DNA of 64,000 nucleotides from a virus, in IMG/VR virus record IMGVR_UViG_3300027863_000020, positions 64,001 to 128,000 of that record. One strand, given 5' to 3'. The notes under the pieces are model-generated. The model was not told the origin of the DNA. It saw only the letters and a list, made by a program, of their open reading frames with translations, and made no database searches. The position numbers were made by a program, and so were the translations under genes. Shown piece by piece: positions 2-63,900 of this stretch; within the stretch, counting starts at the first letter, position 1, and every line of letters starts with the position of its first letter.

Positions 2-1354
2 TTGAAATCGTTGGTGATCGAAGACTTTATCAAAGAGCCGTTGGTTTTCCCCATTGGGTACGAGGGGATTAGTCGGTCTGAAGTTCTGTACGAGCTTCCG
101 CTATTCCGAAAAGAACGAGTTTCCCCGTATCACAGATATGAGTTCGTGGTTGTCAATGAGAAGGTTCTAATCGACAACGACACACGATTGCCCGATTTCA
201 ACTGGTTCCGTGATTGTGACATCCATTTCACAGGAACTACTCCAATGTTCATTCCATATAGGTTCGTCAATTGCGCCCTATATGGCAAACATTCGGACAA
301 GAATATCAAGCCATTCTCATCTTCTCTCTATTTCCATTTGCAGACTGTTATTGGTGGTGGTAGTCGAGCCGATGGTGCGTTTCTGAAGAACTGTACCGTG
401 AACGACATTCGTTTCAAGATGACCAATTTTGAAGGCTCTGCTTATACCGTACCCATCGAAGGCGGTGCTCTCAACAAATGTACTTTCGAGGTGACTACAA
501 AGAACATCGGTACAGGAACCGTCACTACGAAGCAAGTTGGTCATGCAATTGCTCTCAAGAATGTATCTATTTCCAAAACTGAATTTGGCTCGATTGATGT
601 CTTTGCCGAAAATTGCGAAGGTATCATTTCCGCAACCAGACCTACCAAATTACAGGGTGTTGGTAATTCGGTCATCGTCAATAACACGAATGGAACGAAT
701 CCCCCTAGCGTTTTCGTTGGGGATGAATGTACTTCGTTGCAAGTTGTCAATTTGACTAAATCGGAAATGAATGTGATGTTCCAGAACAGGGACTATGCGA
801 AAGACCGATTCGCTATGTTTACCAACCTGTATGTCAATGGAAACATTCGTCTTTCCGCACAAATGACTACATTCGCAACCACGATGCGGGAACAGTTCGA
901 TAGGAGTGGACACAAACAATCCAATGCCCAAATCGTAGTCAATACTTCAAACACCGCTCCCGACACTATGGGGAACCACGATTGGCGACTCACCGAAGAA
1001 TACATGGGCGATTTCTTCAAAGCGAAGGAATCCTTTTCGGATAAAACACAACTGCATATTCCAGACAATTTGCTTGGAACCTTTGTCTTTTCATCGAAGC
1101 GGATAACCGTCAATGGGGACAATCTGCTTGGTCTAATCATCACCACATTGAGCAATATAAATGACCATAGCGAAATCAAGCTGAAGGACGATGTGCTCAA
1201 TCAGGTTATCCTATTGCTTCACAATGGGATGAAAAACGAAGTTCCCAAGGATATGGACTTTGGGACTGAAGAGGGGAAGCCGATTATCGAAAAGATCGTA
1301 CTTCGTGCTTTCAGATTGTACAAGATTTGTCACCTTGCAAAGAGGGTTCTGTAA
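2..1354 (+). CDS. beta-helix-like paralog family protein (5' truncated by window)
   Basis: Open from window edge; periodic F-x-N/D-C-x-I/F strands; C-terminal block LHIPDNLLGTF..ITVNGD shared with next gene. Confidence 0.7.
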   Translation: MKSLVIEDFIKEPLVFPIGYEGISRSEVLYELPLFRKERVSPYHRYEFVVVNEKVLIDNDTRLPDFNWFRDCDIHFTGTTPMFIPYRFVNCALYGKHSDKNIKPFSSSLYFHLQTVIGGGSRADGAFLKNCTVNDIRFKMTNFEGSAYTVPIEGGALNKCTFEVTTKNIGTGTVTTKQVGHAIALKNVSISKTEFGSIDVFAENCEGIISATRPTKLQGVGNSVIVNNTNGTNPPSVFVGDECTSLQVVNLTKSEMNVMFQNRDYAKDRFAMFTNLYVNGNIRLSAQMTTFATTMREQFDRSGHKQSNAQIVVNTSNTAPDTMGNHDWRLTEEYMGDFFKAKESFSDKTQLHIPDNLLGTFVFSSKRITVNGDNLLGLIITTLSNINDHSEIKLKDDVLNQVILLLHNGMKNEVPKDMDFGTEEGKPIIEKIVLRAFRLYKICHLAKRVL

Positions 1355-2883
1355 TGTCCTACTTCATTCGTATGTTTCCGTCACAGGATTCCAGTCGTAG
1401 TTCGTATGATTATTCTTTGGATGATTACAACAAGATTCTGGAATTCTCGAAGTACGACCAGACCCCCTACACTGGTAAGGATGCGGGTGGTCTTTTGAGT
1501 TTCCCATTCGATTCGCATGACAAATTCTTGCGGGATGTCGCCCATACATTCCCATCCCCGCAATTGACATTGAGCACCTATAAGGGAAAGGACGATCTCC
1601 GATTTGTTTTTTGGGACAATGCTTTCTTTATCGGTGCAAATCTTGTCGTTGAGAACGAAACGGTTTACATATCGAAGGACTGCGAACTGACCAATTCGAT
1701 CCTACTCAAGAACTGCAATGTGGTTCTGGTAGGTGGTGGTGTGATTGACCATCGGATATTCTTTGACGGATGCAAAATCCGTGGTGCGGTCAAGAAGGAT
1801 GGATACCCTACATTCACGGGTACATTGGGAATACCTATCCATGCTATGCCAAACTTCAGCACCGATGGCGGGAAATCGAATGTCCTTTTGCAGAGTTCGG
1901 TATTCATCAATTGCGAGATAACAGGTGTATCCATTGGTAGTGAATTTGATTCATACACCAATCCCGTTTTCAAATTGAAGGGATGCAAACTGGTCAAGTG
2001 TGACTTTGGATATATTGGACGAAAGAAGCATGACCATATGCGTGGGATCATTGCGGAAGATTGCTCTTTTGATAAAACGGTGATTGATGGTGTGAAGATG
2101 ATTTCGGATAATTGTGATGGAACAATCGAAATCCGTCATACCAAGCAAACTTCTCCATATCCTGTTCTCATGGTGGTCGGTAAGACCCCGAAGGTTGTCA
2201 TCGGAAAGGAAACCATGACATCGGTTCGTGTTGTGAATGCGACCGATTCGATAATTCCCTTATACATCGAAGCCCCTGAAGTGGCTTCATCCGTTCTTCG
2301 TGGAATTGCCCTCAATGGAAAGTTCGACATCGACATTGATGAAAAGAGTCGGTTCACCGTAGCACACACCAATAAATCGACTGTTTTGTGTACCATCGTA
2401 GGTCTTGCCAATAGTACCGCTCTCGAAATGGGCATCAAGAACAATAGCATCCTTTGGAACAAGTCGATTGCCCAAGTACATTCCGAATTCGACAAACGGA
2501 CAACGACCACGATAGCGGACATCACGATTCCGTCCGAGAAATTGGGTCTATTCGGTGGTTATTCCAATCCGACCGTGACCGTCAATGGAGACCCCGTTCT
2601 CATGTTCGTGACCCAGATCATCGGAGTATTGACCGTTGATGGGAAGGCCAAGACCGATTTGAAGGCAAAGGAATTGATTATCAAGTCGGTCATGGGTACG
2701 CTCAAATCTCTTGGGTATGCGGATCGAAACCATCTCCCAGAGATTCTTGATACCATCTATTCCAAGACATCGAAGATTCTCCGTCTCATGGGATTGACCG
2801 ACAGGCAACGGCTCCATTATATGAAGGAAAACAAGACCCTTCAGAAGTGGTGGTCTCACAATACCGAAAACTCTGAAAAATGA
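1354..2883 (+). CDS. beta-helix-like paralog family protein
   Basis: TAATG-coupled start; LKNCNV/FDGCKI/FINCEI/LKGCKL repeats; ITIPSEKLGLF..VTVNGD block matches upstream gene. Confidence 0.75.
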   Translation: MSYFIRMFPSQDSSRSSYDYSLDDYNKILEFSKYDQTPYTGKDAGGLLSFPFDSHDKFLRDVAHTFPSPQLTLSTYKGKDDLRFVFWDNAFFIGANLVVENETVYISKDCELTNSILLKNCNVVLVGGGVIDHRIFFDGCKIRGAVKKDGYPTFTGTLGIPIHAMPNFSTDGGKSNVLLQSSVFINCEITGVSIGSEFDSYTNPVFKLKGCKLVKCDFGYIGRKKHDHMRGIIAEDCSFDKTVIDGVKMISDNCDGTIEIRHTKQTSPYPVLMVVGKTPKVVIGKETMTSVRVVNATDSIIPLYIEAPEVASSVLRGIALNGKFDIDIDEKSRFTVAHTNKSTVLCTIVGLANSTALEMGIKNNSILWNKSIAQVHSEFDKRTTTTIADITIPSEKLGLFGGYSNPTVTVNGDPVLMFVTQIIGVLTVDGKAKTDLKAKELIIKSVMGTLKSLGYADRNHLPEILDTIYSKTSKILRLMGLTDRQRLHYMKENKTLQKWWSHNTENSEK

Positions 2884-2886
2884 TAC

Positions 2887-2941
2887 TTGACAAGATACAT
2901 TTGGCGAAGTAGATTATGTGATGTCGGGGCTATTCCCGACA
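2887..2941 (+). promoter_or_regulatory. sigma70-type promoter with ACAAGATAC box and 5' stem-loop
   Basis: TTGACA-17-TAGATT, then hairpin TGTCGGG-gctatt-CCCGACA. Confidence 0.65.
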
Positions 2942-2954
2942 ATTACACGATAGG

Positions 2955-3722
2955 TTGAATATGAATATCTTGAGTATCTTCAGTTCGGGATTCCCCGAAA
3001 AAGCAGACAAACGCCTCTTGAAGAACCTTTCCATCCGTGGAAAGGAACTTGGCACGAAACCAATCCAGTCTTGCGACATCATCGGGTGCGACTTCCGTGG
3101 TGCTTCTGCTTCCAATAAGTCGTTCACCAAATCCCATTTCCACAACTGCGACTTCCGTGGAGCCGATTTCATCAATTGTACATTCGGTGCGGTGAGCTTC
3201 GACAATTCCGACCTTCGGGGTGTCAATCTGTCTGGTTCCCTTCCAGTGGGATCGACTTGGCGGTATTCTTGGGCAAACGCTTCGGTGTTCGTTGGATGCG
3301 AGTTCACCAAGTCGGTCTTTTGCGGTGTCAATTTCCAAGGCTCCGATCTTCGTATGGCGAAATTGATTGACTGTCAATTTGCCCGTGAGAACATCACCCC
3401 CGATCTTCCCGTCACTTCGTTCGCCACTGCGAAACTGGACAATGCAAACTTCTCCAACACCAAAGCACCTATGGTCGATTTCCGTCACTGTACAGCACGG
3501 GATACCAATTTCTCGAACTGCGACCTCCGTGGTTCCGACTTCCGTGGTTCCCGCCTCATGGGTGCGTCTTTCCATAATGCGAATGTGGAAGGGTGTGATT
3601 TCCGTGGTGCGTTCCTTCATGGATGCGACTTTTCTGGTGTCAATCTGGATTCCTTCCGTTGGAATTCCGAATACTATGTGGAACGGGATGGTGTTATCCT
3701 CTCCAAGAAGGAGATGCGCTAA
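2955..3722 (+). CDS. pentapeptide repeat protein
   Basis: Many tandem A/C-D/N-F/L-R/S-G repeats (CDFRG, ADFIN, SDLRG, ANFSN). Confidence 0.92.
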   Translation: MNMNILSIFSSGFPEKADKRLLKNLSIRGKELGTKPIQSCDIIGCDFRGASASNKSFTKSHFHNCDFRGADFINCTFGAVSFDNSDLRGVNLSGSLPVGSTWRYSWANASVFVGCEFTKSVFCGVNFQGSDLRMAKLIDCQFARENITPDLPVTSFATAKLDNANFSNTKAPMVDFRHCTARDTNFSNCDLRGSDFRGSRLMGASFHNANVEGCDFRGAFLHGCDFSGVNLDSFRWNSEYYVERDGVILSKKEMR

Positions 3723-4504
3723 TGTTGAACCTCACAAAACACAGCATTGTCATGTCCACCCTGTTTTCCAGAATTCGTCCGATTTCCAAGGAAGAAATCC
3801 ACCTGATTCTGGACAAGGACGAATTCTCCAAAACCCATCTTCCACAGGTTGCCGAAGCGATCAAAGACGATGAAGACATCCCAGAGCGAATTCGGGAAAT
3901 GCTTGTCGATGCGCTTCCGAAGTATCTCAATGAAGCAAAAGACCCGAAGGTCGATCCAGTCGAAATTGACCAACTGGTTCCCATTTGCAAGAAGTGGGCG
4001 GGAAGGCACATTGGAAAAGATTTCTCCGATAGCATGGATGACTGCATGGAAGGGATTGATACATTGATTGAATGGCTCAAGTCCCGTGGATTCGAGCCTG
4101 TCAATGTTCGTTGCGACAATCCAGAGTGTCATGCGATCCATGCCATGATTCCATGCCAGATTCCGACCGATTGGGCGAACCATCCGAATGAACTCTCCGT
4201 CATCGACAAAGATGCGTTCTCCAAGGATGGATATAGCCTTGCGCTCATCGACTTGGAAGACTTGCTCTCCGTGGTATCTGGTCAATTGCGGATTTTCCTT
4301 GGGTTCTACTACGAAATGTGCAAGAGCTTCCCACAATACAAGATCGACCCCGATTCGGTCGAGTTCGGTGGTCTCCGTGTCCAGAGGGATGGGGAAGACA
4401 TGGGGCTATTGGTCGATACCAACATTCTTGCCGTCAAAGAATGGATCAATCTGCAACGGGTTCTTCATTACCGAAATGGGGATGGAGTATGGACAAAGCG
4501 TTGA
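3722..4504 (+). CDS. hypothetical protein
   Basis: TAATG-coupled 260-aa ORF. Confidence 0.7.
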   Translation: MLNLTKHSIVMSTLFSRIRPISKEEIHLILDKDEFSKTHLPQVAEAIKDDEDIPERIREMLVDALPKYLNEAKDPKVDPVEIDQLVPICKKWAGRHIGKDFSDSMDDCMEGIDTLIEWLKSRGFEPVNVRCDNPECHAIHAMIPCQIPTDWANHPNELSVIDKDAFSKDGYSLALIDLEDLLSVVSGQLRIFLGFYYEMCKSFPQYKIDPDSVEFGGLRVQRDGEDMGLLVDTNILAVKEWINLQRVLHYRNGDGVWTKR

Positions 4505-4764
4505 TTGTATCCTATGTCGTTGAAGCGACTCTCGAAGGAATACCGTGCGAGGTGTCCCTTCTTGACAAGGATGGGAACGAGGTCGGTTTTTGGGCGTATG
4601 GAGCCTTTACCGACTCTTCCGTTCTATGCCCGTGCTCCGACAATATACGCCCTTCGTTACATCCTGAAGGGCATTCCAGAGACGAAGCGAGTATAGCCCA
4701 ACTCATAACTAAAAATCTTCAATCGGGATTCAATAGAGTCCCGATTTTTCATTATCATAAATAA
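4489..4764 (+). CDS. hypothetical protein
   Basis: GGAG RBS, overlaps upstream stop. Confidence 0.55.
   Translation: MDKALIVSYVVEATLEGIPCEVSLLDKDGNEVGFWAYGAFTDSSVLCPCSDNIRPSLHPEGHSRDEASIAQLITKNLQSGFNRVPIFHYHK
4758..4763 (+). promoter_or_regulatory. T4-like late promoter core TAAATA
   Basis: CATAAATA 5 nt before ATG; same motif precedes structural genes elsewhere. Confidence 0.6.
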
Positions 4765-4768
4765 TGAT

Positions 4769-6589
4769 ATGAAACGAACTCTTCTCATTTTTGGCTACTC
4801 CCCGTCTGGTATGTTCAAGGCAGTCCGTGAGTATTTGAAGGATCAAAATGGTTGGTCTGGTGGTGACAAATACGATGGACTCAAGTACAACAACTTGACC
4901 TATGCGTTCTCCAAAGAAATCGAGGTCAATGACCAGAACACCGTTGCTATTGCGGAACAGGCCAAGATCAGCGAATGGGGTATGTATGTCGCAATTCTCA
5001 ATGAAGATGAGACACAGTGGCGACTTCTGGAATCGTCCGAATGGAAGCCTATTTCCAAATTGACGATCAATAACGCAAACAAGATTGCGAAGGAATCGGC
5101 ACGGACATCGGTTTCGTCAATCGAGTCGGACATCATGGCGGTTGCGTTTCTACGACAGAGGTATTTCACAAATACCGTCCGTGGACGGAATGGTATTCGT
5201 GACGATGCCAAGCCATACCGTGATTATCGTGGTAAGAAGGGATGGAGCGATAAGCCCCAAGAAGAAATGACTTATCGCAAATTGACACCAGACGAATCGG
5301 TCGGATTCGGTGTCGATGAAATGTTCCCGAAGAATACCTATGAGAAGATAATCGAGGAAGTTGGTAGTGGTACTCACAAGAATCGGTCGTATGCCGAAGA
5401 TGCCATCAATATCCTATTTCTGGTCAATACGAAGACTGGAAAGATGATCTGCATTCGGAAGAACCATTCTAGCTCTTATGATATTGTGGAGTCCAAGGAC
5501 ACCGCTGAATCAGTATCGTTGAAAGATGTTCGTGTCAATTTGACTGAATATGTTGTCGATGAAGTAATCACAGCAGGGTCTCAAATCATTTCCAGAGTCT
5601 TCAATCTTCCAGTTCCATTATTCGGATACTCCGATTTGCGATTTGTGAATTGCGAAGTGTTCACAAGACTAGGTGATGCCAACTTGGTCAATGTCTATTT
5701 CGATTCGTGTAAGTTCGATGTGAATAAAATCCAGTTATTCGGAACCTGTCACTTCGATAATTGCAAACTTGAGCTAGGGAAAGTCGGTTCCATAACGACA
5801 CACGGGAATCTATCATTCGATAAGTGCCTTGTCGATATAACGGCTCTCCATATCTACCTTTCCGAAAATGCCGATTTTGAAGCGAACAATTGCCAATTCA
5901 ATCGGGCGACAATCATTGCCTATTGTGAAAAGGAATTACCCGCCAAGTTCACCAATTGCAGATTTGAAAACAACTATACGATCAATTTGAGCGACAAAGC
6001 ATACTTCATGTTTACCAAGTGCCATTTGAACCCTATGGCGGTTCCTTTCAATTTTGGTCAATCGAAGGCTCAATATCCGTGCGTTCTGATTGACAGCTTC
6101 GTTGTCCATTATATCAGTGGAAAGCCCGTGCGGGTCATTGGCGATGCGAAGGGAAGCACTTATCTACTGAAGGGTCTCGATACCGATGCCGATTTCTCAC
6201 AGGCTAGGAACGCAAGCATTCGAGCACTCAATTGTACGCTTGGCGGTATCTTCATTCCACCACAGGATGCGGTGATAATCGAGGAAGTCGAGAAGTTCCT
6301 TCCATTCAAAGACAGTGAAGAAGACAAGCAACGACACATCTTCTTTTCTGGATTGAACAAATACGAAGTCACTACCTTCATGGGAACTACTATCCGAAGG
6401 GATGACAACGACAAGCCAGAGACATGGGATTGGACTGGATGGTGGGCATCATTCATTGACAAGGTGGCGAGTCCGATTGACTTGAGTTTCATAACTCCAC
6501 CGAAAGATTATGCCACCATAAAGAAGTATGCTCTGCGTTGGTTCAAGTTCCGTAAGTTGTTCAAGAACGGACACCAGAGGGTTGTATAA
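4769..6589 (+). CDS. beta-helix-like paralog family protein with extended N-terminus
   Basis: RFVNCEV/YFDSCKF/HFDNCKL/SFDKCLV/KFTNCRF repeats; basic C-terminal helix. Confidence 0.75.
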   Translation: MKRTLLIFGYSPSGMFKAVREYLKDQNGWSGGDKYDGLKYNNLTYAFSKEIEVNDQNTVAIAEQAKISEWGMYVAILNEDETQWRLLESSEWKPISKLTINNANKIAKESARTSVSSIESDIMAVAFLRQRYFTNTVRGRNGIRDDAKPYRDYRGKKGWSDKPQEEMTYRKLTPDESVGFGVDEMFPKNTYEKIIEEVGSGTHKNRSYAEDAINILFLVNTKTGKMICIRKNHSSSYDIVESKDTAESVSLKDVRVNLTEYVVDEVITAGSQIISRVFNLPVPLFGYSDLRFVNCEVFTRLGDANLVNVYFDSCKFDVNKIQLFGTCHFDNCKLELGKVGSITTHGNLSFDKCLVDITALHIYLSENADFEANNCQFNRATIIAYCEKELPAKFTNCRFENNYTINLSDKAYFMFTKCHLNPMAVPFNFGQSKAQYPCVLIDSFVVHYISGKPVRVIGDAKGSTYLLKGLDTDADFSQARNASIRALNCTLGGIFIPPQDAVIIEEVEKFLPFKDSEEDKQRHIFFSGLNKYEVTTFMGTTIRRDDNDKPETWDWTGWWASFIDKVASPIDLSFITPPKDYATIKKYALRWFKFRKLFKNGHQRVV

Positions 6590-6678
6590 TGTTGGAATTA
6601 GCCATGCTCTCAATCTTGATGCTACTAGCCCATCACAACTTCATAGTGCTTGGGCGAAAGCGATTCCGTGATAGATGA
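6589..6678 (+). CDS. small hydrophobic peptide (29 aa)
   Basis: TAATG-coupled; MLELAMLSILMLLAHHNFIVLGRKRFRDR fills the intergenic gap. Confidence 0.45.
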   Translation: MLELAMLSILMLLAHHNFIVLGRKRFRDR

Positions 6679-6693
6679 TGAATCATGGGTTCC

Positions 6694-6699
6694 TAAATA
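6694..6699 (+). promoter_or_regulatory. T4-like late promoter core TAAATA
   Basis: CCTAAATA followed by GAGG RBS and ATG 6714. Confidence 0.6.
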
Positions 6700-6713
6700 C
6701 ATTTGAGGAACCT

Positions 6714-8258
6714 ATGAAATACGATAACGACAAGAACATCCATTCGGAAGATGATTTGGCGAAGGCTTATTCCCTAGCACAAACCGAAGGTGTTTCTTCA
6801 ATTGCGGTCGGGATAGTCGAGAACCCGATGGTCATGGAAGTTGTCCGTGGCCTTTCCGCATTCAAGGGCAAGTATTCTCCAAAGAAGAATTCCGTTGGTA
6901 TCGAGATCATCGAGAATGACGGGTATTCCATCGTGTCGCTAATCAATTCAAAGGGATTGGCGATGCACGAAGAAGTCATCAAAGAATTCGTACAAATCTT
7001 TTCATTCAGAAAAGGCAATGCGTTGTGTTTTGTCGAGCAACCGATTCTGAATTTAGCGACAACTTCTGGACTAGATGGCGTTTACCTAGTCAATCAGAAA
7101 ATGGATCACAAGGTAATGGATTCCATGCGAAGGCTTTTGTTCTACAAATGTCAATTCGATTTATCCGTTAAAGGATTGGGGGCTTCAAAAGCACAAGCAA
7201 AACAGAATAGGGTAAGCGAACCGATCCAACTACTTGACAATTGCAAGCTCATCGAATGTTCCGTTGTCAATTCGAGACCGACTGATTCGTTGCAAAGGTA
7301 CGCATTGGTTCGGGTTGTTGGTTGCGATCTAGTCAATACCGACTTCGTGGGCATAGCAGTGGGGTTGTTCGACCGCAACACATTGGAACGGTGCTATTTC
7401 ACCCGATGCTATGTATTCGGTGCAGAAGACCCCAATCAACCGAAGCTCAATTTCAAATTCGAGCAGAAGTTCTCCAAGTGCAAATTTGGATTTGATAATC
7501 TAATCGCACCAACTCAAAACATATTCGACCTAGATGATTGCGAAACCTTCCACAAGCCAGTATTGAACGAGATTGGGAAAATCCGTCCGTTTGCCGAAGT
7601 GACCAGTTCCTTCGGGTTCGATGGATCACATCTTCCTAATCAAATGGTGTTCCGTGGATCGACTATGCCTATGGTGTCGCAAGACCTTTCCATGAGCGAT
7701 CATGTGTATATGTATTTCACCCTAGTCGGAAACCGAATCAATCCAACACTGGATACGAGGGCATTCATCGGAGTCGGTATTGCCAATACCAAGATGATGG
7801 TCGAACGAAAGGGTGGAACCGATCCAGTCGTATTGACTCTTTCTGGAAAGACCACTATTCCCGATTTCGATGCCCGTGAAAATGACCCAGAACTCTATAC
7901 TCCATCCGATCCGTCAATTCCGTTTCTTGAAATGAAGGGCGTTGATGTATTGGCGGTTCCTACTGGATACGACAGAGACCCCGTACTGGAAAATGGTATT
8001 GGTGTCTTCTTGGAGAAAGTTCGTGGAATCCATACCATCATCGACTTCAAGGACAGCAGAACATCGGTGTTCTATGTCTATTATCCGTTGATGCAAGCGA
8101 TCATCAAAACAAGTGGACGCAAGGTTGTCGAAAAGACTCTCAAGAAGGTGTGTGATGAAATTGAGAGAAAGCCGTCAATCGGTGAGTATCTGAAGAACGA
8201 GCCACCCGAAATAACCCGTCTTCGTAAAATGTTTGAACTTCTATCAAGAGGTCTTTAA
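6714..8258 (+). CDS. beta-helix-like paralog family protein
   Basis: LFYKCQF/LDNCKL/VVGCDL/LERCYF/FSKCKF repeats; ~514 aa. Confidence 0.75.
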   Translation: MKYDNDKNIHSEDDLAKAYSLAQTEGVSSIAVGIVENPMVMEVVRGLSAFKGKYSPKKNSVGIEIIENDGYSIVSLINSKGLAMHEEVIKEFVQIFSFRKGNALCFVEQPILNLATTSGLDGVYLVNQKMDHKVMDSMRRLLFYKCQFDLSVKGLGASKAQAKQNRVSEPIQLLDNCKLIECSVVNSRPTDSLQRYALVRVVGCDLVNTDFVGIAVGLFDRNTLERCYFTRCYVFGAEDPNQPKLNFKFEQKFSKCKFGFDNLIAPTQNIFDLDDCETFHKPVLNEIGKIRPFAEVTSSFGFDGSHLPNQMVFRGSTMPMVSQDLSMSDHVYMYFTLVGNRINPTLDTRAFIGVGIANTKMMVERKGGTDPVVLTLSGKTTIPDFDARENDPELYTPSDPSIPFLEMKGVDVLAVPTGYDRDPVLENGIGVFLEKVRGIHTIIDFKDSRTSVFYVYYPLMQAIIKTSGRKVVEKTLKKVCDEIERKPSIGEYLKNEPPEITRLRKMFELLSRGL

Positions 8259-11133: not shown

Positions 11134-11142
11134 AATAATACC

Positions 11143-11171
11143 TTGACTATACAAGATACATAGTGTATATT
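11143..11171 (+). promoter_or_regulatory. class-1 (early) promoter
   Basis: TTGACT-atacaagatacatagtg-TATATT; ATG 6 nt after -10 (leaderless-like). Confidence 0.85.
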
Positions 11172-11177
11172 CAAGGT

Positions 11178-11432
11178 ATGATGACAATACACGAAACATT
11201 GAAGGTTATCAGGGAAAAGGCAGAAGCCCTCAAAGCCCCCTACAATGGTTGCGTTCTTTCCGTGAAATTGGGCGAAACCGTCCACAAGGTAGAAGCTCAC
11301 AAACAGCACTGGTTGGTGGAAGGTTCGTATCCGAACTATTCGGTTGGTCTGTATGTGTTTGCCGATCACGCCAAACTCTATATCTCTCAATACTCTTGGG
11401 AATCGTTGGTGGTCGGGGTCGAATTCAAATGA
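11178..11432 (+). CDS. hypothetical protein
   Basis: Directly follows class-1 promoter; overlaps next start. Confidence 0.65.
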   Translation: MMTIHETLKVIREKAEALKAPYNGCVLSVKLGETVHKVEAHKQHWLVEGSYPNYSVGLYVFADHAKLYISQYSWESLVVGVEFK

Positions 11433-13014: not shown

Positions 13015-13036
13015 TTCAACTAAAGGACAAATTGAA

Positions 13037-51048: not shown

Positions 51049-51053
51049 CTGTA

Positions 51054-55399: not shown

Positions 55400-55424
55400 A
55401 GGAACTCCTTTGTCCTATTTAGTA

Positions 55425-55928
55425 TTAAAGAGGGACGGCATTCGTGGAGAGCAATAGCTTTTCCCACTTCAGTTTCCGTTCTTCTGTCAAGAATTCATCA
55501 ATTGGTAATGCGAGAATGTTCTTGGAAGCTGTGTGATACATTCCGACCGATAACAGTGGAATGATCGGTGCTATCTTCGCAAGAACGGACTCTTCGGTTG
55601 TCGATTGAAATTGAGAGAAGTCCGTCATAAGGACTTCGGCACGAACTTGTGCTACGATGATCGGAGTATTTAGAATGTTCCAAATGACTTGACCGTCAAT
55701 TTCATTTCTGAAAATGTTGTCGATGTCGGATTGAAGCATCCACAAATACGATAGGACGATGTTGTCCTGAAGGCCATTTCCATAGAAGTCATATGCCACC
55801 CACCCTTCCGTCTTCTGAATCTTGGTAATCGCATCGGATACCAACTTCTTATTGGGAGATTGGGCAATATAGATTCGTTCGGAACCCTTCGTGATGTAGA
55901 AACACGGACGATTTTTATAGGTAAGCAT
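55425..55928 (-). CDS. putative tail fibre assembly protein
   Basis: Small ORF between two fibre genes; helical C-terminus. Confidence 0.45.
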   Translation of the reverse strand: MLTYKNRPCFYITKGSERIYIAQSPNKKLVSDAITKIQKTEGWVAYDFYGNGLQDNIVLSYLWMLQSDIDNIFRNEIDGQVIWNILNTPIIVAQVRAEVLMTDFSQFQSTTEESVLAKIAPIIPLLSVGMYHTASKNILALPIDEFLTEERKLKWEKLLLSTNAVPL

Positions 55929-55937
55929 GAGTTCTCC

Positions 55938-57626
55938 TTATGCCCTGAAGCCCATCATCCACGCACGGGAAGATGCGGGGGAGTGTGATTGCATGGTTGG
56001 ATATATTCCAGTGACACCATCGTCATACCGTGCATTGATGCTAGTGTAGCTCAATGCAATAGCAGGGGAACCAGTGGTCAATCCACTATATCCACCAAAC
56101 GCAATTCCATTGATCTTACCCGCAACGGTGAAATAGTAGATGGTGTTCCGTGTAAGTGCGACTGGTGACGGGAACGAAAGAATCTTCACGCCCGTACTAT
56201 CTGGTCTGCGATATGTTTCCGCATGAGCGGTGGACAATGTATCCGTTTGGGCAATGAGGTTTCCATTGATGTCACACACTCCGAACCGCATAGTTTCCGA
56301 AGATGCCTGTGATTGAGTCACAAAAGCCGCCATCTTGTCAATCTGGGTATCATACGGGGTAATAACCGCTGTCCAGATTTGGGCGTTACCACCGAAGATA
56401 TTGACGGCCTGTGAAATCAGGGAAAGGATAAAGGTCTGGACACCCGCATATTGACCACCCGCATCATCACCACCCGAAGACGGGGCAATGGTTGGTAGGG
56501 TGGACTTCTCGACAAGAAGAATTCCATCCACACCGCCACGGAACGCCCGACCCACATAGGTCAGGAAGTTCGGGAACACGGGAGCGGTTGTGGTGATGAG
56601 ACCCGCTGTGGTATCGGATAGCCACATTTGGGCATTGTCCGCAATTCCAGTGAGGTCGAGTGGCAATGCACCACCACCCATGATTTCACCAATCCCTTCA
56701 TGTGGGATGTCATACATGGTGATACCAGACACGAACGAAGTGGATGAAGAATTGGCTTGTGCCAACGCAATCGTGGGAAGGCCACTATCATGCCCGTTGG
56801 GATAAACCGCACGACCTTTGGGGATCGTAGCACCGCTCATGTTTTTGACAAGGATTCTCATTTGGCGATTCATCACCAATGGGGAATCTTCCCTGTTTCC
56901 TTGCACCACAACACTCTGGACTGGATCAAGGTAGAAGAGTTTACCCTTGTGGTAAGTAGGCTCTGTTGGCAAAGCTGTGAGGAAATTGGAGCCATTCAGA
57001 GAAAGGTACGCACCCGACCCGCCTTGGGATGCAAACAATGTCCAATGAGTAGGATCGGCACTTGGATTCGGGGACTCTGGATCGGAGTTATATGCCAAAA
57101 TGTTGATATAGACATTCCCATCGAACGACACAAGATTGTTCACCTTGTATGCGACACCAACACCCCAACTTCCAAGGAACTTTAGTCCACCAAATTTGAT
57201 CTTGAGAATTTCGGGGGAAGCTGTCCCCGCTGTCTTCTCCAAATCAAGCGTTATCTCTGGATCGCCACCCGTCAATTTGTCATTGAGGAACCCGGGCCAC
57301 GGAAGTCCGATACCGTTTACATCGTTTGCGGATGCCATGAGCATACCCGCCCATTCATTCACGATCTCGAAAATCCATTCATGGTCTTCGTGTGAGGGAG
57401 ACAAAATGGCACGGATACCCGTGGTATTATTCACGGGATTCCGCAATCCAGTACACCAGAATTCGTCAATTTCGCTAGGACGATCTACTTCAGTGCTTCG
57501 TCTGCGATACAGGATGGAGTGGCGGTCGGTGCAAAACCCCGCCTGTCCTTCCAACAATTGACCATTCGTAGCCAATTCAGCATATGTACCACAACGGTCA
57601 ATTATGTTTTTGTATTCGGTTCCCAT
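55938..57626 (-). CDS. tail fibre/spike-like structural protein with CBM5/12-like module
   Basis: W..GVAYKVNNLVSFDGNVY..P..DPTHW; G-rich beta domains. Confidence 0.65.
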   Translation of the reverse strand: MGTEYKNIIDRCGTYAELATNGQLLEGQAGFCTDRHSILYRRRSTEVDRPSEIDEFWCTGLRNPVNNTTGIRAILSPSHEDHEWIFEIVNEWAGMLMASANDVNGIGLPWPGFLNDKLTGGDPEITLDLEKTAGTASPEILKIKFGGLKFLGSWGVGVAYKVNNLVSFDGNVYINILAYNSDPESPNPSADPTHWTLFASQGGSGAYLSLNGSNFLTALPTEPTYHKGKLFYLDPVQSVVVQGNREDSPLVMNRQMRILVKNMSGATIPKGRAVYPNGHDSGLPTIALAQANSSSTSFVSGITMYDIPHEGIGEIMGGGALPLDLTGIADNAQMWLSDTTAGLITTTAPVFPNFLTYVGRAFRGGVDGILLVEKSTLPTIAPSSGGDDAGGQYAGVQTFILSLISQAVNIFGGNAQIWTAVITPYDTQIDKMAAFVTQSQASSETMRFGVCDINGNLIAQTDTLSTAHAETYRRPDSTGVKILSFPSPVALTRNTIYYFTVAGKINGIAFGGYSGLTTGSPAIALSYTSINARYDDGVTGIYPTMQSHSPASSRAWMMGFRA

Positions 57627-57637
57627 AACAATCTCCT

Positions 57638-60600
57638 TTAGATCAATCCACTAGGGGATTCAATGCTGTCTGGTAATGGAGACGGGAGAATGCCACCCTT
57701 CTCGTCAATCGTATCAATCCACGGAGAACCCAACACACCTCTTCCTTCGTCAATCGAATCGAGAACGATAGGCTCTGGTGTATCCGTCTGCGAATGGACA
57801 CCATCACCCCACCAATCAACCATAGTCGGCAACTGCTTGACATCGTGCTCGACATTGATGACAAGCGATAGATCGTCAAGGACTGTATTGATCGGACGGA
57901 GTGCATTTATAGTATTTAGCACACGCCCAAGAATATCGGAAATACCTTCGGTCTGCGAGTACAGGTCGAATTGGGTCAAGTCCACATCAATGCTGAAATG
58001 CGGGGTGAGTCCCATTGACTCATCCTTGATCTGTCTGGTCTCAATTACAGTTTTCGCTTCATACAGTCGGTTCTCGTTGCTTTCAGACCATGCCCGTTCG
58101 GGTGTCGGTCTCAATATGAAGTTCTCATCATAATTGAGGCCGTAGTCGGATGTCCACTTGTAATAGATGTCGGCAAGCGCACCAACGGAGAACATGAGGC
58201 CACGGATCGCATCCTTTGTCGCCTTGATTCGGTTGATCTCTGGAAGGTTCGCAACAAGGAATCGAGCATAACGCAACAAATCATCGGGCGCATTGGCAAT
58301 GTCCCTAGCACGGAGAATTCCACTCACCATATCATAGCCAAGGTTCTTCGCAAGCATATGGAGGTACTGGCTAGGGATGGTATCGGGATCGTGCATATCG
58401 AGCAATCCGTCAATCTTGTCCAGAATACCATGAGCCATAGCATACGGATCGGATGAGGTGGCACCAGTGTACAGGGTGTTCATCTCATCCTGAAACACGC
58501 CAACGAAGTTCTCGAACGGGCTTTCCTTCAGGTATTCGGGAACATACGCCCTGAAATTGACACCACGCAATCCTTGGTTTCCGTCAATTTGCCCACGGAT
58601 ACAGGAATTGGGATCGGCTGTCTCCAAAGGAACAAGCAACGAATTCTGTCTGGTCAGGGTAATCGGGATGGATACCCCAATTCCACTGTATTCGATGAAA
58701 TTGAGAACAAATGGAGTTGGGATGGAGAACCGAAGCCGTCCATTCCAGATATTGACGGATGGGTTCAATGAGATTTCGATTCGAGACGCTTCATAGGAAT
58801 AATCCGCTCCATTCTGTCCACCAGTGAGGAAGAATGTAGTGAATGGATGTATGGTAATCCCATCATCGCCAACGACTTCGACCATCACCTGTCCATTCCA
58901 CCCATTCGGGGAATCGGAAATACGGACGGTGTTGTTGAATGGGCTTGCAGGGGGGTGTTCCAAAACTCCCAAGACATCAACGGCACGGACAAGCAGGGTT
59001 GCCTTGTCTCCACGCAAAAGACTCTCTCCCGTGCTGTAATAGCCATTGTCGCCAAGGACTACGAATGGAACATCAAAAGTGATTTCCCGTTGTGAAATAG
59101 CGGGATTCACATTGACCAAGAATACCCCACTCACACCCGTCATGCGGATGATGAACAAACCAACCTTGTTATCGGATGCGTAGTTGTCGAGAGGCATGAC
59201 CAATTGAACCTTTCCGAAATCGACACCATTGATGTTCACGATTTCGTATCGGTACTTGTACCAAGGGGTCGCCCAAGTGTATTGAGAATAGGAAGCGTAT
59301 GTACCGCTTTCCAAACTCATAAAGCTAACCGTATCTGGTTTTGCTACTGGATCAATCCAGAGAGTTACCATTTGTCCAGTACCATCCCCCCAAGTCGATG
59401 GATTGTATTCGATGGTCGTTCCATTCATAACATGGGGATCAATCTCTCCGAAATTGGGAGCAGACGGGGACGGGTTTCGGTACGAATTGAAATGAGTCAA
59501 GATTGAGCCGTCAATCGAATTGACCACAAAGACCGAAGAGTTGGATGACGGGGACTGATCCAAGAATCCAATCCACATCGTAAGAAGGCTGTTCTCCATC
59601 GGAGGGAACATTGACGCATAGCTTCCGTTGTACAGGTCAATCGCACCCATAGAAATCTCAATTCGGGTCGGAGTGACCAGATTGATGACTGGATTGCTGA
59701 AGTTCGACTTGTACTGTTCCGAAGAAGCGTTCTTTCTTCCCCATCCAAATGCAACAATGGGGCGGTTATCCAATCCAGTTCCTTGGATGACATATCGGGA
59801 AATTCCACGATCATAATACGCATTGGAAATGACGGGAAGTGGCAATGCTAGTTGGGTCTCTACTCCCTCTTCCGCAAGAATGTAGGTAGGCATGGAGGCA
59901 TCGAGACCAACCACCCATTCGTTCGATCCTACTTGTGCCAACCCCGCATAAAATCTGGATTGGATCACCGAAGTATTCGCAAGATTGGCATTGCTAGAAT
60001 ACCCATACCCGATCTGTCCAGAATATCCACCAAGATTGTTGTTGCCATTGATATATTGACGGGTCGATGTTCCAGTATTGGAAATGACATCGCAAATAAT
60101 CGCCCGTCTGTTATTGGCGGGGGCTAGGTCGATATAGACTTGATGAAAATGCTCATCGAATGGAAAGTCACCACCGCCTTGGAATACCCAACGGGCATTC
60201 CGCTTCGTCTTATGAGTGACCCACGAATACTGCGTGTCAATTTCACGCCAACAATTGAACAATACGGAATATGCGCTTGCTCCATCATTGAGTACGGATA
60301 GCCCCGTCCAATTCAATTTGGCATGGAGCAATGCGTGTTTGGTTCCACCACCATACCACGAAAATGTATCGGTAAATGTCTTCGTGAAATTGGAAATATC
60401 GAGACCCAATGGAATAGTCATAATCGTACCACCACCGCTGATAACGGGGGCGGGTGCTGTGATGGTATGCGCTATTTCACGGGTGGGGATCAAGTTGCTA
60501 CTTGGAGTCCATCCCAACATATAACCATAGCTAACTGTCGGAGTTCCGAAGTAACTATAATACTCAAAGAAGAGTTCAATGTTTGCGATATTTCCAGACC

Positions 60601-60694
60601 ACCTATCAAGGTGTACTCCCTCAATGATGAGGTCGGTTCCAGATTGATACGCTTTGTGGATTCGTGGCTTCAAGTCCCAATTTGCATATGCCAT
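57638..60694 (-). CDS. baseplate wedge protein (T4 gp7/P2 gpI-like C-domain)
   Basis: DPDTIPSQYLHMLAKNLGY..LPEINRIKATKDAI..INALRPINTV; follows gp6-like gene. Confidence 0.7.
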   Translation of the reverse strand: MAYANWDLKPRIHKAYQSGTDLIIEGVHLDRWSGNIANIELFFEYYSYFGTPTVSYGYMLGWTPSSNLIPTREIAHTITAPAPVISGGGTIMTIPLGLDISNFTKTFTDTFSWYGGGTKHALLHAKLNWTGLSVLNDGASAYSVLFNCWREIDTQYSWVTHKTKRNARWVFQGGGDFPFDEHFHQVYIDLAPANNRRAIICDVISNTGTSTRQYINGNNNLGGYSGQIGYGYSSNANLANTSVIQSRFYAGLAQVGSNEWVVGLDASMPTYILAEEGVETQLALPLPVISNAYYDRGISRYVIQGTGLDNRPIVAFGWGRKNASSEQYKSNFSNPVINLVTPTRIEISMGAIDLYNGSYASMFPPMENSLLTMWIGFLDQSPSSNSSVFVVNSIDGSILTHFNSYRNPSPSAPNFGEIDPHVMNGTTIEYNPSTWGDGTGQMVTLWIDPVAKPDTVSFMSLESGTYASYSQYTWATPWYKYRYEIVNINGVDFGKVQLVMPLDNYASDNKVGLFIIRMTGVSGVFLVNVNPAISQREITFDVPFVVLGDNGYYSTGESLLRGDKATLLVRAVDVLGVLEHPPASPFNNTVRISDSPNGWNGQVMVEVVGDDGITIHPFTTFFLTGGQNGADYSYEASRIEISLNPSVNIWNGRLRFSIPTPFVLNFIEYSGIGVSIPITLTRQNSLLVPLETADPNSCIRGQIDGNQGLRGVNFRAYVPEYLKESPFENFVGVFQDEMNTLYTGATSSDPYAMAHGILDKIDGLLDMHDPDTIPSQYLHMLAKNLGYDMVSGILRARDIANAPDDLLRYARFLVANLPEINRIKATKDAIRGLMFSVGALADIYYKWTSDYGLNYDENFILRPTPERAWSESNENRLYEAKTVIETRQIKDESMGLTPHFSIDVDLTQFDLYSQTEGISDILGRVLNTINALRPINTVLDDLSLVINVEHDVKQLPTMVDWWGDGVHSQTDTPEPIVLDSIDEGRGVLGSPWIDTIDEKGGILPSPLPDSIESPSGLI

Positions 60695-60695
60695 A

Positions 60696-60893
60696 TCAAT
60701 GGACTCCAAAAAGATGTACGATTACCCAAAGGCCATCATCGGAATTGACCACTTCGGTTGTTGCGGAATAAAGCCCACAAGACTCATTTCTTCTCAATGA
60801 CTCTTCCCGACACCTATCAATAAAAGAAGCGTCATCCGACAACGCAAGTGCGGTGCATGGATAACGCTCTTCAGTTTCTAGCCTTTTACTCAT
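60696..60893 (-). CDS. hypothetical protein
   Basis: Follows TAAATA at 60899-60904. Confidence 0.45.
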   Translation of the reverse strand: MSKRLETEERYPCTALALSDDASFIDRCREESLRRNESCGLYSATTEVVNSDDGLWVIVHLFGVH

Positions 60894-60908
60894 ATCTCTA
60901 TTTAGGCA

Positions 60909-63900
60909 CTACCCATATCGGAACTCCATTTCGGATTTGATCTGGACAATTTCGTTCCGCATCGTGTAATTGACGATGTTTCCGTAGCTGTCCAACATAC
61001 CCGCACGAATCGCCTGTGTCAATCCATTGTGGAGCTTGAGCATCAATCCCTTGAACGAATTGGACTTGATGAACTTCTCGACATTCGATTGAGCATCGGT
61101 ATCTTCCAAATATGCGCTCGATTGGAGAAGCGTATTAACCTGATCCTTGATGTCATTGATATTGAACGAACTACCATCCGCTCCAAACTCATTGAGGAAC
61201 AGATTGAGGATTAGACGGTCGGTTGTGTAGAAGTCGGGCGATACCGTGTCTGCTTTCTTCTTCGCAATCGCACGGAGTTCGATGATGACATTCCGCATGA
61301 CCGTGTGGTAGAACCAACGCTCACTGATTCCACCGATCCTGTGGTGCATCTTCGATTCGGTGACCCATGCTTCATCCGCTTCTCCCTTGATAGGAGCGTT
61401 CATCCGCCAAGGGGTTCCCGTTGCAGTGACCCTCTCGAATTCGGTGATGTCGAGAAGCGCATTATACTTTCCATTGCTCCATTCATCCTTGGTCAAAGGG
61501 AATAGCTCACCGCACCGTGTCCAATCTTGGTACAGGTCATAGTAGTAGCTGTTCGCCCAATCACCCCAAGGAATAGCCTTGATGCTTTCGTGGCAATCCG
61601 TCCCTCTGCTGTTCTTGTATGGGGCGGGGATATGATCCCGCAACCCAAACGGAGTACAGGCTTCGGCAACGGGGTCTGTGGTAGGCACGGTCGTTGTCGG
61701 AATAGGGGTAGGACAAGAACAATACTTGTGATGAATCACATCGAACAACCGCTTCACTTCCTTGGTAATGGCGGTCTGGAACGCTTCCACCAAATACACC
61801 TTCGGATCGAATCCAAGATCATTATAGACTTCGACCATATTGGTAACGACTTCGGCAATCAGTCCAAGGTTGTTTCCCAAGTTTCCAGTATCGGAGGTGA
61901 ACGAAATACGAATAGGAGCCTGTGGATCGTATGGGGCGGTTTCCCATGCGGTTCCAGTCCACTTGATGTATTCCTGTGAACGGAGACCATACGGAGCAAC
62001 GGAAATGATGCTTCCTACTGTCGGGATATGGAACTGATAGTATGCGTATGAAGTCATAGTGCTTCCGTTATATGACTTCTGCCATACTTTCTGCACCAAC
62101 GCATAAGACGAAGGTGGTTGATTGTTGGACGGGAAACCAGAAGGAATCGTTCCACGCAATACATACCACGCATAGGGATTCATTCCACCAAGACCGACTT
62201 CATCCGCATACCCTTGGCAATACCAATTGATCTGCGATTGGGTCGGGAACATTTCGGTGATTTCACCAAAGAAGTAATTGACACCACCATCTTGGGAAAG
62301 ACGGAGTTTCTTGCCAATCAGTTCATTGTAGTTAGCAACCGTGTATGTACCGTCTTGGGTAATCTTCCCTTCGGAATCGGGAATTACCGTGAATTGACTC
62401 GCATGAACATCGGGGTACACACCATTCTGAAGAGCAAAGAATCGGTCATACTCATACGGAATCTGCGACATCATTTCTGGTTCGGTCATCCAGTCATTGA
62501 TGACCATTCCATTGCTTGCGACTGGAATGAACTTCAGGTCGGCACGGATCACATCGGGGTTGTTCTTCGCAATGGAATTGATATGGGAAATCAACACGGG
62601 GGTATTGAAATTGACATTCGCATCAAGGAATTCGTAGATAGCCGTTTCAACATCGGTACGGACTTTCTCAATATCGGCAAAGTCACGCACCCACACCTGT
62701 CCACCCAATTTGAACTCTTGAACAATCGGGGTGATGTACCGTGGCTTGGTTGTCAATTGTCCACGGGCTTCGAGCATAGCCGTCAATTGAGCTACTGGAT
62801 GACCCTGTGGGAATTGATCGACCATCGCAATCTGGTCATCGGTGTACGGGGGATTGGTACGATTGAAGAACTCTTCGTAGAGCTTCCGTTCATATTCCCG
62901 CATGAGAATGACGGAATCGGCTACAAGGATGTTGAAGTACGCTTGTTCGGAATACTGGTCGTAGTCGAATCCTTCGAGCAAGCCGTTCTCATTGAGAGTC
63001 GTTGTCGTTCCATCGGGAACCGTCCCACGGATCAATTGTTTCGGAACATACCGACCATCGCTAGTCCGTTCGTAGAGATGCCCAAGGACGGAATAATAGA
63101 CATGGTTCGCATACCGCCTGTTTGCCCTGTACCCGCTCTGCTGTACTTCTTCCTGTTCACCCCACGCAATCGCATGACGGACACGGAGAGGGCTTGCTAG
63201 GGAGGAAAGAAAGGTGGCATAATCGCCAAGGCCAACCAGACGGTCAAGGGAGTTGTAGATAGCAGGGGCATTGTTCTTGATTGACTCAATACTCTCCATA
63301 TCCGCACCACCGCCCACATTCGTCCCAAGAAGAACGGTGAGCATTTGGGAGATGTCCAGAAGGTTGGGCATCGTGGCATAGATAGGATTGACGAACTGGA
63401 TGGCGGTTCCACGGGAACCCACCTCATTGGCGGTCGTTCCCTTGGTAGCCAAATACCTGATTCGGATGACATGATCGCCCTTGGGCATCATCGCAACATA
63501 CCCATCGCCAAACATGACCTCGACACCACCGCTCTTTGCTGTTCGGATCACGCACACACGGGGGATATTGTCTTCAACAAGGTCTCCATCCTCGTTGTAT
63601 CGCTTGTCGTAGGTATCACGGTACAGAGTTTCGTGATTTACCAAAGAACGCCTGTCAATCTTGTACAGGGAGCTTTCGTCATACGGGGGATCATCCACAT
63701 AGGCACTGGAAACCTGTGTGAACCCACTGGAAGGTGTCCAAAGACCCGTCACCTGATTGTAGGCACGGGGGTCATTGTTGCCGAACCAGTCGGAGAATTC
63801 GGGATCATTGATCTCGTACCTTTGGAAAATTTGACCAGAAATGGGATTTTCCGTGAAATTGATCGTCACTTCACGGGATTCGCCCTGAATGGCGATGGGG

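Follow-up and report, generated by a model that had tools for sequence, protein, structure and literature searches.

Results

A dispersed hexamer in a divergent T4-like phage genome

The window analysed here is a 64-kb stretch of DNA, with 81 called genes, from the 150.8-kb genome of a very divergent T4-like phage. Judged by gp23, the closest isolated phages are cyanomyoviruses (27% identity), and one contig carries a gp23 85% identical to that of the phage. The phage ThyX has only 40–43% matches, in Clostridia MAGs without a gp23 match.

A first-pass annotation of the window had put the heptamer CGTCAAT/ATTGACG at about 95 copies by hand count, with about 8 expected. Exact search of both strands returned 97 copies against 8.2 expected from base composition (M0), and every position quoted in that annotation (265, 676, 7912, 8173, 9182, 9221, 36608–36689 and 39611–39637) was recovered. 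The expectation is 14.1 under an M1 model, 17.9 under M3 and 83.1 under M5. Dinucleotide shuffles of the window contained 14.3 ± 3.3 copies (maximum 25), and the 81 called genes held 86 copies against 18.7 ± 4.3 in synonymous-codon shuffles. The features referred to below are as follows.

1..64000, both strands: dispersed ATTGAC/GTCAAT, 250 copies, 97 of them extended to CGTCAAT/ATTGACG
265..271, plus strand: CGTCAAT, first quoted copy (exact search)
36608..36689, plus strand: three copies of CGTCAAT in 82 bp, at 36608, 36620 and 36683 (exact search)
39611..39637, minus strand: two copies of CGTCAAT, 20 bp apart (exact search)
51001..54000, minus strand: part of a 1438-aa gene (51083–55399), ATTGAC at 1, 4 and 1 per kb

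By count, the hexamer ATTGAC/GTCAAT and its CGTCAAT extension are the top 6-mer and 7-mer of the window. The genome contains 595 copies of the hexamer, 7.3 times the expectation and one per 253 bp, and under every null that was run this is the most over-represented 6-mer of the genome. In every 50-kb third the excess over base composition is 7.0–7.4-fold. Maximal-order Markov models gave ATTGA as the top 5-mer (z = 15.5) and ATTGAC as the top 6-mer (z = 9.7). In a 50-kb T4 control, no hexamer was more than 3.5-fold over expectation, and the highest Markov z was 4.5.

Extent of the word

Although the heptamer is over-represented as had been claimed, the enriched unit is shorter: once its hexamers are taken into account, the heptamer shows hardly any excess (97 vs 83 in the window, 232 vs 205 in the genome). 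In a one-mismatch scan only ATTGAC (2.2-fold), ATTGAG (1.95-fold) and ATTGGC (1.55-fold) stood above the null, and the remaining 15 words lay at 0.66–1.18 of it. The word depends on the A ahead of TTGAC and on an S at position 6, and the next position shows no preference for A over G. The real enriched word is ATTGAS, mainly ATTGAC/GTCAAT.

The flanks described earlier for the heptamer, YCGTCAATY, are roughly those observed: of the 97 window copies of CGTCAAT, 51 have C, 37 T, 9 G and none A on the 5′ side, and 40 have C, 30 T, 17 G and 10 A on the 3′ side. The 5′ pyrimidine is, however, largely forced by word avoidance, since a 5′ A would create ACGT, which this genome forbids, and GACGCC/GGCGTC, a G-extended form, is among the avoided words. 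Flank information content is at background beyond ±2 bp, and no extended consensus of 9–12 bp was found around ATTGAC in flanks checked to ±45 bp. The word is non-palindromic (reverse complement GTCAAT), and its palindromic fusion, TCAATTGA, is under-represented (26 vs 42.7).

Placement in the genome

Copies of ATTGAC are divided between the strands as 299 plus and 296 minus, with no regional skew, and 89% of them lie within genes, with strands equal. The first-pass annotation had claimed that the heptamer occurs in all codon phases; it does so in each one that is free of stops, on either strand, and intergenically as well. ATTGAC likewise occupies all five stop-free phases, both strands and intergenic DNA. 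Its enrichment is 1.6–4.3-fold in each of the five phases, the most numerous being in-frame ATT-GAC and GTC-AAT, and in the 16.3 kb of intergenic DNA it is the top hexamer (51 vs 13.8).

Up to 80 bp, no distance between two ATTGAC copies is favoured, and the flanks of the word are not conserved. The coefficient of variation of gaps, 0.95 (P = 0.09), does not set the spacing apart from a random one. The widest gap measures 1493 bp, compared to 1766 bp expected, and local groups of CGTCAAT do not outnumber those predicted by uniform placement. A search for a larger repeat, dyad, fixed spacing or REP/MITE-like element found none, and there was no paired inverted copy.

Codon and protein-level nulls

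Genes contain 530 copies of ATTGAC against 142 ± 11 in synonymous shuffles (z = 36; z = 31 for the heptamer), which agrees with the earlier view that simple codon bias is unlikely. A codon-pair (dicodon) Markov null, under which a loss of the enrichment would have refuted the earlier claim, left it in place: 210 vs 97 for the heptamer (z = 12) and 530 vs 437 for ATTGAC (z = 4.6). The phage uses 54% of its 980 synonymous ATTGAC opportunities, compared to 3–15% in relatives, and its proteins are unaltered, because the opportunities per kb equal those of the relatives.

A translational cause, be it codon, codon-pair or dipeptide bias, would fit the prevalence of the in-frame phases and the 1.5-fold that dipeptide order adds (91 vs 142). 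We consider it exceedingly improbable, since the antisense strand and intergenic DNA are enriched as well and the surplus persists under both synonymous and dicodon nulls. The synonymous, phase, intergenic and dicodon tests reject the idea that codon or dicodon bias could suffice on its own. The enrichment acts at the DNA level and is unexplained by codon usage or protein sequence.

Restriction-site avoidance explains part of the surplus

The phage genome is devoid of 46 of the 64 six-base palindromes and contains ACGT twice, with 1171 copies expected. About 190 short words are avoided, including nearly all 4–6-bp palindromes, many Type IIS-like words and TAA/TAG/TTAA. This avoidance is the most extreme that we have met in any phage record. 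Avoidance of restriction sites (palindromes) in phage genomes was described by Rusinov et al. (2018, PMC6286503). The same palindrome loss is seen here, and forbidding words lifts the expectation for ATTGAC 1.7–2.5-fold; the ATTGAC surplus is, however, not exhausted by avoidance.

The contribution of avoidance was estimated by synonymous resampling with avoided words capped at their observed counts. With 113–189 avoided words capped, about 235–245 copies of ATTGAC are expected in genes, and with every depleted 2–6-letter word capped about 350, compared to the 530 observed. Avoidance thus accounts for 26–54% of the surplus and leaves a word-specific excess of 1.5–2.2-fold. The surplus at the DNA level that had been proposed is real, but about a quarter to half of it is a by-product of restriction-site and TA avoidance, which had gone unnoticed. 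The effect is visible at Val-Asn, where 5 of 8 codon pairs hold avoided words and, of the 222 places in this frame where GTCAAT could be written synonymously, 77% read GTC-AAT. Gapped Type I sites or biased mutation and repair could add to the modest residual.

Relatives of the phage

Closer relatives are short fragments, of 2.3 and 13 kb, and three viral-contig scans and one metagenome scan for close relatives yielded one more fragment, of 4.3 kb. The word preference is lineage-specific, and members of the subclade differ in G+C and in their restriction-avoidance spectrum. In L019, counts are 0/98 for ACGT, 0/149 for CCGG and 4/64 for TTAA, with 4 copies of ATTGAC against 5 expected. L031 (portal 75% identical, 34% G+C, weak avoidance) has 18 ATTGAC against 7.8 (P < 0.003). 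In L032 (portal 83% identical) ATTGAC stands at 8/1 and ATTGAG at 7/1, and ACGT and CGCG are not avoided. Across these relatives the surplus does not track avoidance. Avoidance and motif excess are separable, because L019 has avoidance alone while L031 has the excess with little avoidance.

In comparison with relatives about 96% identical in nucleotide sequence, third-codon-position differences number 1 in 86 within sites and 6.5% outside them (P = 0.04). Low site turnover is, however, also expected because many single-base exits from the word create forbidden words, and the conservation of further abundant hexamers is nearly as high (87–98%). Comparison with L031 gave 6 shared sites against 5.1 expected and that with L032 gave no signal of positional conservation, both on small numbers. 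Density is kept, not individual positions.

Candidate readers

The copies had been proposed to act as decoys for sigma region 4, and they could equally be read as TTGACA-like promoter −35 boxes. The word contains TTGAC, ATTGACA is enriched (160 vs 73), some intergenic copies probably lie in early promoters, and CTTGAC is also enriched intergenically. However, TAnnnT at a 16–18-bp spacer follows only 11 of 594 sites, with 14 expected by chance, which leaves the decoy proposal without support. The 89% share of copies inside genes, equal on both strands, and the sequence requirements of the word itself (leading A, S at position 6, no preference for a following A over G) also argue against a −35 or decoy role, which we regard as very improbable. 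A promoter −35 role is rejected because the −10 partner is absent.

The idea that the word is a modification target was left without an identified enzyme among those searched for in the phage. Six-frame searches with PF00145, PF01555, PF02086 and PF02384 revealed no match to DNA methyltransferases at E ≤ 0.1 to 1, a ThyA-type hydroxymethylase was not found, and the TET/JBP match was sub-threshold. The phage carries two TAGT glycosyltransferases. An origin of the word by m5C deamination (ATCGAC to ATTGAC) or VSP-like repair was rejected, since ATCGAC, at 1.14-fold, is not depleted and TTAA is depleted evenly whatever the context. A literature search for ATTGAC in phages returned nothing relevant. 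In 151 bacterial genomes of one phylum, a sample chosen without a known host, ATTGACG reaches at most 0.24 per kb, compared to 1.54 per kb in the phage.

Discussion

Three kinds of iterated words offer themselves for comparison. Like Chi (GCTGGTGG or AGCGG, read by RecBCD/AddAB), ATTGAC is short, asymmetric, several-fold over-represented, present in all frames, lineage-specific and of a kind that acts through density; it differs in being far denser (one per 253 bp), in not being G-rich and in having no strand skew. To our knowledge, all Chi sequences described are G-rich. The Chi-like signal suggested by the first-pass annotation lacks the classical skew (299/296), the absence of which is expected of a circularly permuted, headful-packaged genome. 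With the Neisseria DUS and Pasteurellaceae USS the word shares a non-palindromic form, nearly equal strands, even dispersal and location within genes in all frames. Those signals, however, are 9–12 bp long with consensus flanks, whereas information around ATTGAC is gone beyond ±2 bp, and they belong to competent bacteria, ATTGAC to a lytic T4-like phage. The cyanobacterial HIP1, GCGATCGC (Elhai 2015, PMC4390886), is likewise iterated genome-wide and maintained at the DNA level, and in both cases related lineages carry different words instead; ATCGAT is the one favoured in L017 and L018. Unlike HIP, ATTGAC is non-palindromic, and a cognate methyltransferase was not found in the phage.

We interpret the surplus as having two layers, a by-product of avoidance and a word favoured in this lineage for a sequence-reading protein, and put the probability of this reading at roughly 0.35. 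In the first layer, avoidance removes most synonymous alternatives wherever ATTGAC/GTCAAT can be written, with the in-gene expectation rising from 142 copies to about 240, at most about 350. The second layer, the further 1.5–2.2-fold excess specific to the word, exists, and we infer its cause. It acts on duplex DNA whatever the strand, frame or coding status, maintains density but not individual positions, and is inherited within the subclade. A protein that reads the word, of phage origin or from a related host, may make its high, even density advantageous. The word would then be a mark of 'self', which could take the form of a Chi-like signal restraining a helicase-nuclease of the host, or of a target at which a protective modification is placed on the DNA. 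A recognition word selected by density for a DNA-scanning protein is our leading reading, with low confidence. That ATTGAS is the 'self' word of a new T4-like subclade, scanned on either strand by a host helicase-nuclease or by a modification or binding enzyme of the phage, and selected at about one copy per 250 bp throughout the genome, is possible, if doubtful. Against a reader protein stand the up to 54% of the surplus that needs no reader, the enzyme searches of the phage in which no candidate reader was found, spacing no more even than random and the lack of positional conservation relative to L031.

The surplus might instead be a pure by-product, the vocabulary left after purging restriction, TA-rich, internal Shine-Dalgarno-like and other disfavoured words, with no reader at all. 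The rise of the null upon capping and the constrained writing of Val-Asn both speak for this, as does the finding that the excess is largest in G000 and L032, where TTAA/TA depletion is also the strongest among the records. We nevertheless judge it unlikely, because the observed count remains 1.5–2.2 times every constrained null, because L019 is equally extreme in avoidance and shows no excess while L031 combines weak avoidance with a 2.3-fold excess, and because the same word tops intergenic DNA and the excess is specific at six positions.

A context-dependent repair or replication bias, or drift toward the oligonucleotide signature of the host, that pushes the DNA toward ATTGAS would likewise leave the sites functionless in the phage. 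Maintenance of density rather than position, equal strands and uniform placement, the like effect on coding and non-coding DNA and the lineage-specific, graded pattern are what such a bias predicts. A mechanism has been postulated for cyanobacterial HIPs, in which methylation-dependent mismatch repair creates and maintains iterated words (Elhai 2015, PMC4390886). On the other side, a DNA methyltransferase was not found in the phage, and neither precursor nor deamination-partner words show a specific depletion (ATCGAC as above, TTAA uniformly across flanks). Mutational context effects seldom extend over six positions. In addition, none of the 151 sampled genomes of one phylum, the host not knowingly among them, comes near the density of the phage. 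On this evidence we hold a mutational or host-signature origin to be improbable, though not markedly so.

If the 'self'-word reading is true, no identity word that is asymmetric, free of strand skew and selected for its density would have been described from a phage before ATTGAS, which here stands alongside extreme avoidance. Selection on the residual would point to a new protein-DNA recognition system that marks phage DNA densely, and would bear on self/host discrimination and on escape from nucleases by un- or partly modified lytic phages. Even without a reader, the genome presents a clean quantitative case of avoidance compressing the synonymous vocabulary of a phage. Motif discovery in phages calls for caution, since avoidance by itself is enough to raise the count of an innocent word 1.7–2.5-fold.

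The segment 51001..54000, poor in ATTGAC, is atypical and possibly of recent acquisition: words that are avoided elsewhere reach their highest density in it, at 7, 9 and 11 per kb.

The phage and its genome

The window spans positions 64001-128000 of an IMG/VR record of 150,817 bp. Pfam scans of 148 called proteins identified a T4-like phage, with matches to the T4 portal, Gp23, gp15, gp32, family B DNA polymerase and UvsW, as well as to a DnaB-like helicase, Mre11/Rad50-like gp47/gp46 and a Dda-like helicase. The phage is very divergent: across 50,697 phage records, the closest gp23 sequences came from cyanomyoviruses, at 27% identity. The ten largest window proteins (325-1438 aa; window 1354-60694) matched no Pfam family, and their PHROG matches were all faint and to families without a known function. 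Neither the four main families of DNA methyltransferases nor a ThyA-type hydroxymethylase was detected anywhere in the genome; TET/JBP was likewise not detected in it, the sole match scoring 12.5 bits. Two genes for TET-associated glycosyltransferases (TAGT; L011 is the handle for their coordinates) were found within genome 24.7-26.9 kb, with a dUTPase/dCTP-deaminase-like gene nearby:

L011:9662-10459, TAGT gene 1
L011:10911-11885, TAGT gene 2

The enriched word is a hexamer

The first-pass annotation had proposed that the heptamer CGTCAAT/ATTGACG occurs about 95 times in the window against about 8 expected. Exact search of both strands found 97 copies, every quoted example among them. Base composition predicts 8.2, dinucleotide models and shuffles 14.1-14.3 (maximum 25 in 100 shuffles) and a third-order Markov model 17.9, but given the hexamer counts the expectation rises to 83.1. 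The heptamer is therefore real but derivative, and what is enriched is the hexamer ATTGAC/GTCAAT, one word on two strands, with 250 copies in the window. Genome-wide, 595 copies were counted against 82 expected, a 7.3-fold excess that holds at 7.0-7.4-fold in each 50-kb third (heptamer, 232 against 19). Under maximal-order Markov models of the genome, ATTGA was the most over-represented 5-mer (1478 vs 1028, z = 15.5) and ATTGAC the most over-represented 6-mer (595 vs 430, z = 9.7), while ATTGACG added little beyond its hexamers (232 vs 205). In a control 50-kb stretch of phage T4 the top hexamer reached only 3.5-fold and the top Markov z 4.5.

The excess persists under coding nulls

The gene set, obtained with an iterative codon model, comprised 176 genes and 89% of the genome. 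ATTGAC was present in all five stop-free phases, two sense and three antisense, as well as in intergenic DNA; in the latter (16.3 kb) it was the top hexamer, with 51 copies against 13.8 (first-order) or 24 (third-order) expected. Synonymous shuffles that keep each protein and the codon usage of each gene gave 142 +/- 11 copies in genes against 530 observed (z = 36), and 46 +/- 5 against 210 for ATTGACG (z = 31). Simple codon bias, already considered unlikely in the first-pass annotation, is thus effectively excluded. The enrichment also persisted under the dicodon-preserving null named there as its refutation: a codon-pair Markov model predicted 437 copies of ATTGAC (z = 4.6) and 97 of ATTGACG (z = 12). 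This test is lenient, since in-frame hexamers are preserved by construction.

Restriction-site avoidance explains part of the excess

The genome avoids restriction sites to an extreme degree, a feature that had been overlooked and that matters for reading the motif excess. Genome counts were 2 for ACGT (1171 expected), 4 for CGCG (939), 84 for CCGG (939) and 162 for TTAA (1461). GCNGC, GGNCC and CTNAG are near zero (GCWGC 0, GGWCC 3, CTCAG/CTGAG 0, CTAAG/CTTAG 1, i.e. one CTNAG in total), as are CCWGG (0) and CGWCG (3). The genome contains no copy of 46 of the 64 six-base palindromes, nor of 232 hexamers expected 30 times or more; it lacks many asymmetric, Type IIS-like words (e.g. CTGGAG, ACCTGC, GGCGGA, CACGAG, ACTGGG), and TAA/TTA and TAG/CTA are depleted in every frame. 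GATC, TCGA, GAATTC and CAATTG are not avoided. Enzymes of Nostoc PCC 7524 recognize RCATGY, GDGCHC, CYCGRG, GGNCC and TTCGAA. Because all five of these sites are among the avoided words, the sequence hints at a filamentous cyanobacterial host.

The contribution of avoidance was estimated by MCMC over synonymous codon permutations, with avoided words held at or below their observed counts. Capping 113 or 189 avoided words raised the expected ATTGAC count in genes to about 235 or 245. Capping all depleted words of length 2-6 (z < -3, 357 words) raised it to about 350 (heptamer, about 120), a generous null because part of the depletion may stem from the excess of ATTGAC itself. Relative to the simple synonymous null, avoidance accounts for 26-54% of the surplus and leaves a residual of 1.5-2.2-fold. 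All five phases remained enriched under the constrained null, 1.6-4.3-fold. The effect of avoidance is evident in the eight Val-Asn codon pairs, five of which carry avoided words (GTT-AAY has TTAA, GTA-AAY has TAA or GTAAC, GTC-AAC is GTYRAC), so that GTC-AAT is written at 171 of the 222 synonymous opportunities for GTCAAT in that frame (77%).

Anatomy of the residual excess

The specificity of the residual is sharp: against the constrained null, an excess was limited to ATTGAC (2.2-fold), ATTGAG (1.95-fold) and ATTGGC (1.55-fold), with the other fifteen one-mismatch words at 0.66-1.18. T is disfavoured on both flanks, and within +/-45 bp the surroundings carry no sequence information past +/-2 bp. 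The two strands carry 299 and 296 copies; pairs of sites favour no particular distance, and the gaps are distributed as if placement were uniform and random (coefficient of variation 0.95). Proteins permit ATTGAC at 980 positions, and 530 (54%) carry it. Permissive positions per kb are the same as in relatives (7.3 vs 6.0-7.9), so codons, not protein sequences, are bent towards the word.

At promoter spacing, TAnnnT followed 11 of the 594 sites where chance predicts 14; the suggestion that the word is a -35 element or a decoy for sigma region 4 is effectively excluded.

The preference is inherited within a subclade

Three relative contigs (L009, L016 and L024; about 96% nucleotide and 97-98% protein identity) carry ATTGAC at 4-8-fold. 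The more distant L017, L018, L019, L027 and L028, with gp23 50-68% identical, lack the preference (0.8-1.7-fold) and use 3-15% of opportunities. L017 and L018 (gp23 about 60% identical) instead favour a palindrome, ATCGAT, which stands 6.5-7.4-fold above composition and, in L017, 2.4-fold above synonymous shuffles; it is wholly absent from the focal genome. L019 favours GTGACA.

Two closer relatives were reached via the portal protein. L032 (portal 83% identical, 2.3 kb) has ATTGAC 8 vs 1 and ATTGAG 7 vs 1; neither ACGT nor CGCG is avoided in it, and it is rich in CCATGG, absent from the focal genome. L031 (portal 75% identical, 13 kb, 34% G+C) shows weak avoidance, and its genes contain 18 copies of ATTGAC where synonymous shuffles give 7.8 +/- 2.4 (P < 0.003). 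Conversely, L019 shows extreme avoidance (ACGT 0/98, CCGG 0/149, TTAA 4/64) yet no ATTGAC excess. Excess and avoidance therefore dissociate both ways; the preference is a heritable trait of the subclade, which avoidance amplifies in the focal genome. From one close lineage to another, words switch between favoured and forbidden, as ATCGAT and CCATGG do.

Relative to the ~96%-identical fragments, 45 of 46 ATTGAC sites are retained, against 85% identical hexamer windows overall, and third-codon-position differences affect 1 of 86 positions within sites and 6.5% of those elsewhere (P = 0.04). As evidence for selection on the sites this conservation is weak, because other abundant hexamers reach 87-98% retention and many exits from ATTGAC create forbidden words. 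At permissive positions shared with L031, ATTGAC co-occurred at 6 sites against 5.1 under independence. The density of the word is maintained, not its position.

Possible origins of the preference

The preference for ATTGAS (ATTGAC or ATTGAG) acts on density at the DNA level, blind to orientation and frame, and its inheritance within the subclade is accompanied by amplification through vocabulary collapse. We infer that a sequence-reading protein underlies it; no candidate enzyme was found. Our leading reading, with a probability of about 0.35, is a density-selected 'self' word, either Chi-like or a target of protective modification. In the Chi-like form, equal orientation and uniform spread would be what a circularly permuted, headful-packaged genome needs, and the host nuclease specificity would be common to related hosts with differing restriction systems, which fits the pattern of L031 and L032. 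In the other form, ATTGAS itself would be what the modification marks. Nearly as likely is a pure by-product of constraints that are incompletely modelled; avoidance does take up part of the excess, and the word is also favoured in relatives without matching avoidance. About as likely as the by-product is a bias in repair or mutation, or a host-signature process, similar to what Elhai proposed for HIP1 (PMC4390886).

Restriction-site avoidance in phages is already known (PMC6286503). New here is an asymmetric, unskewed hexamer whose excess was partitioned quantitatively: one share comes from avoidance, and the other is a heritable residual that is uncoupled from avoidance in the relatives. Over-represented identity words are known in bacteria (Chi, DUS/USS, HIP1).

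Other features of the vocabulary

Two control words made by reversal without complementation, TAACTGC and CAGTTA, have no copies on either strand of the 150.8 kb, which illustrates the skew of the vocabulary. Shine-Dalgarno-like words are strongly depleted in genes on both strands (AGGAG/CTCCT 37 vs 248; also GGAGGA and CCTCC). A or T runs and TATA-type words are depleted in genes genome-wide, the latter perhaps because they would create spurious late promoters of the T4 type (TATAAATA). Avoidance violations are most frequent in window 51001-54000, in the gene for the 1438-aa protein, and in genome 39000-41000, the major capsid gene gp23 (7-11 per kb vs a mean of 1.6). ATTGAC copies are few in both segments; the pattern could stem from a recent recombination or acquisition event, or from tighter constraint on protein and codons.
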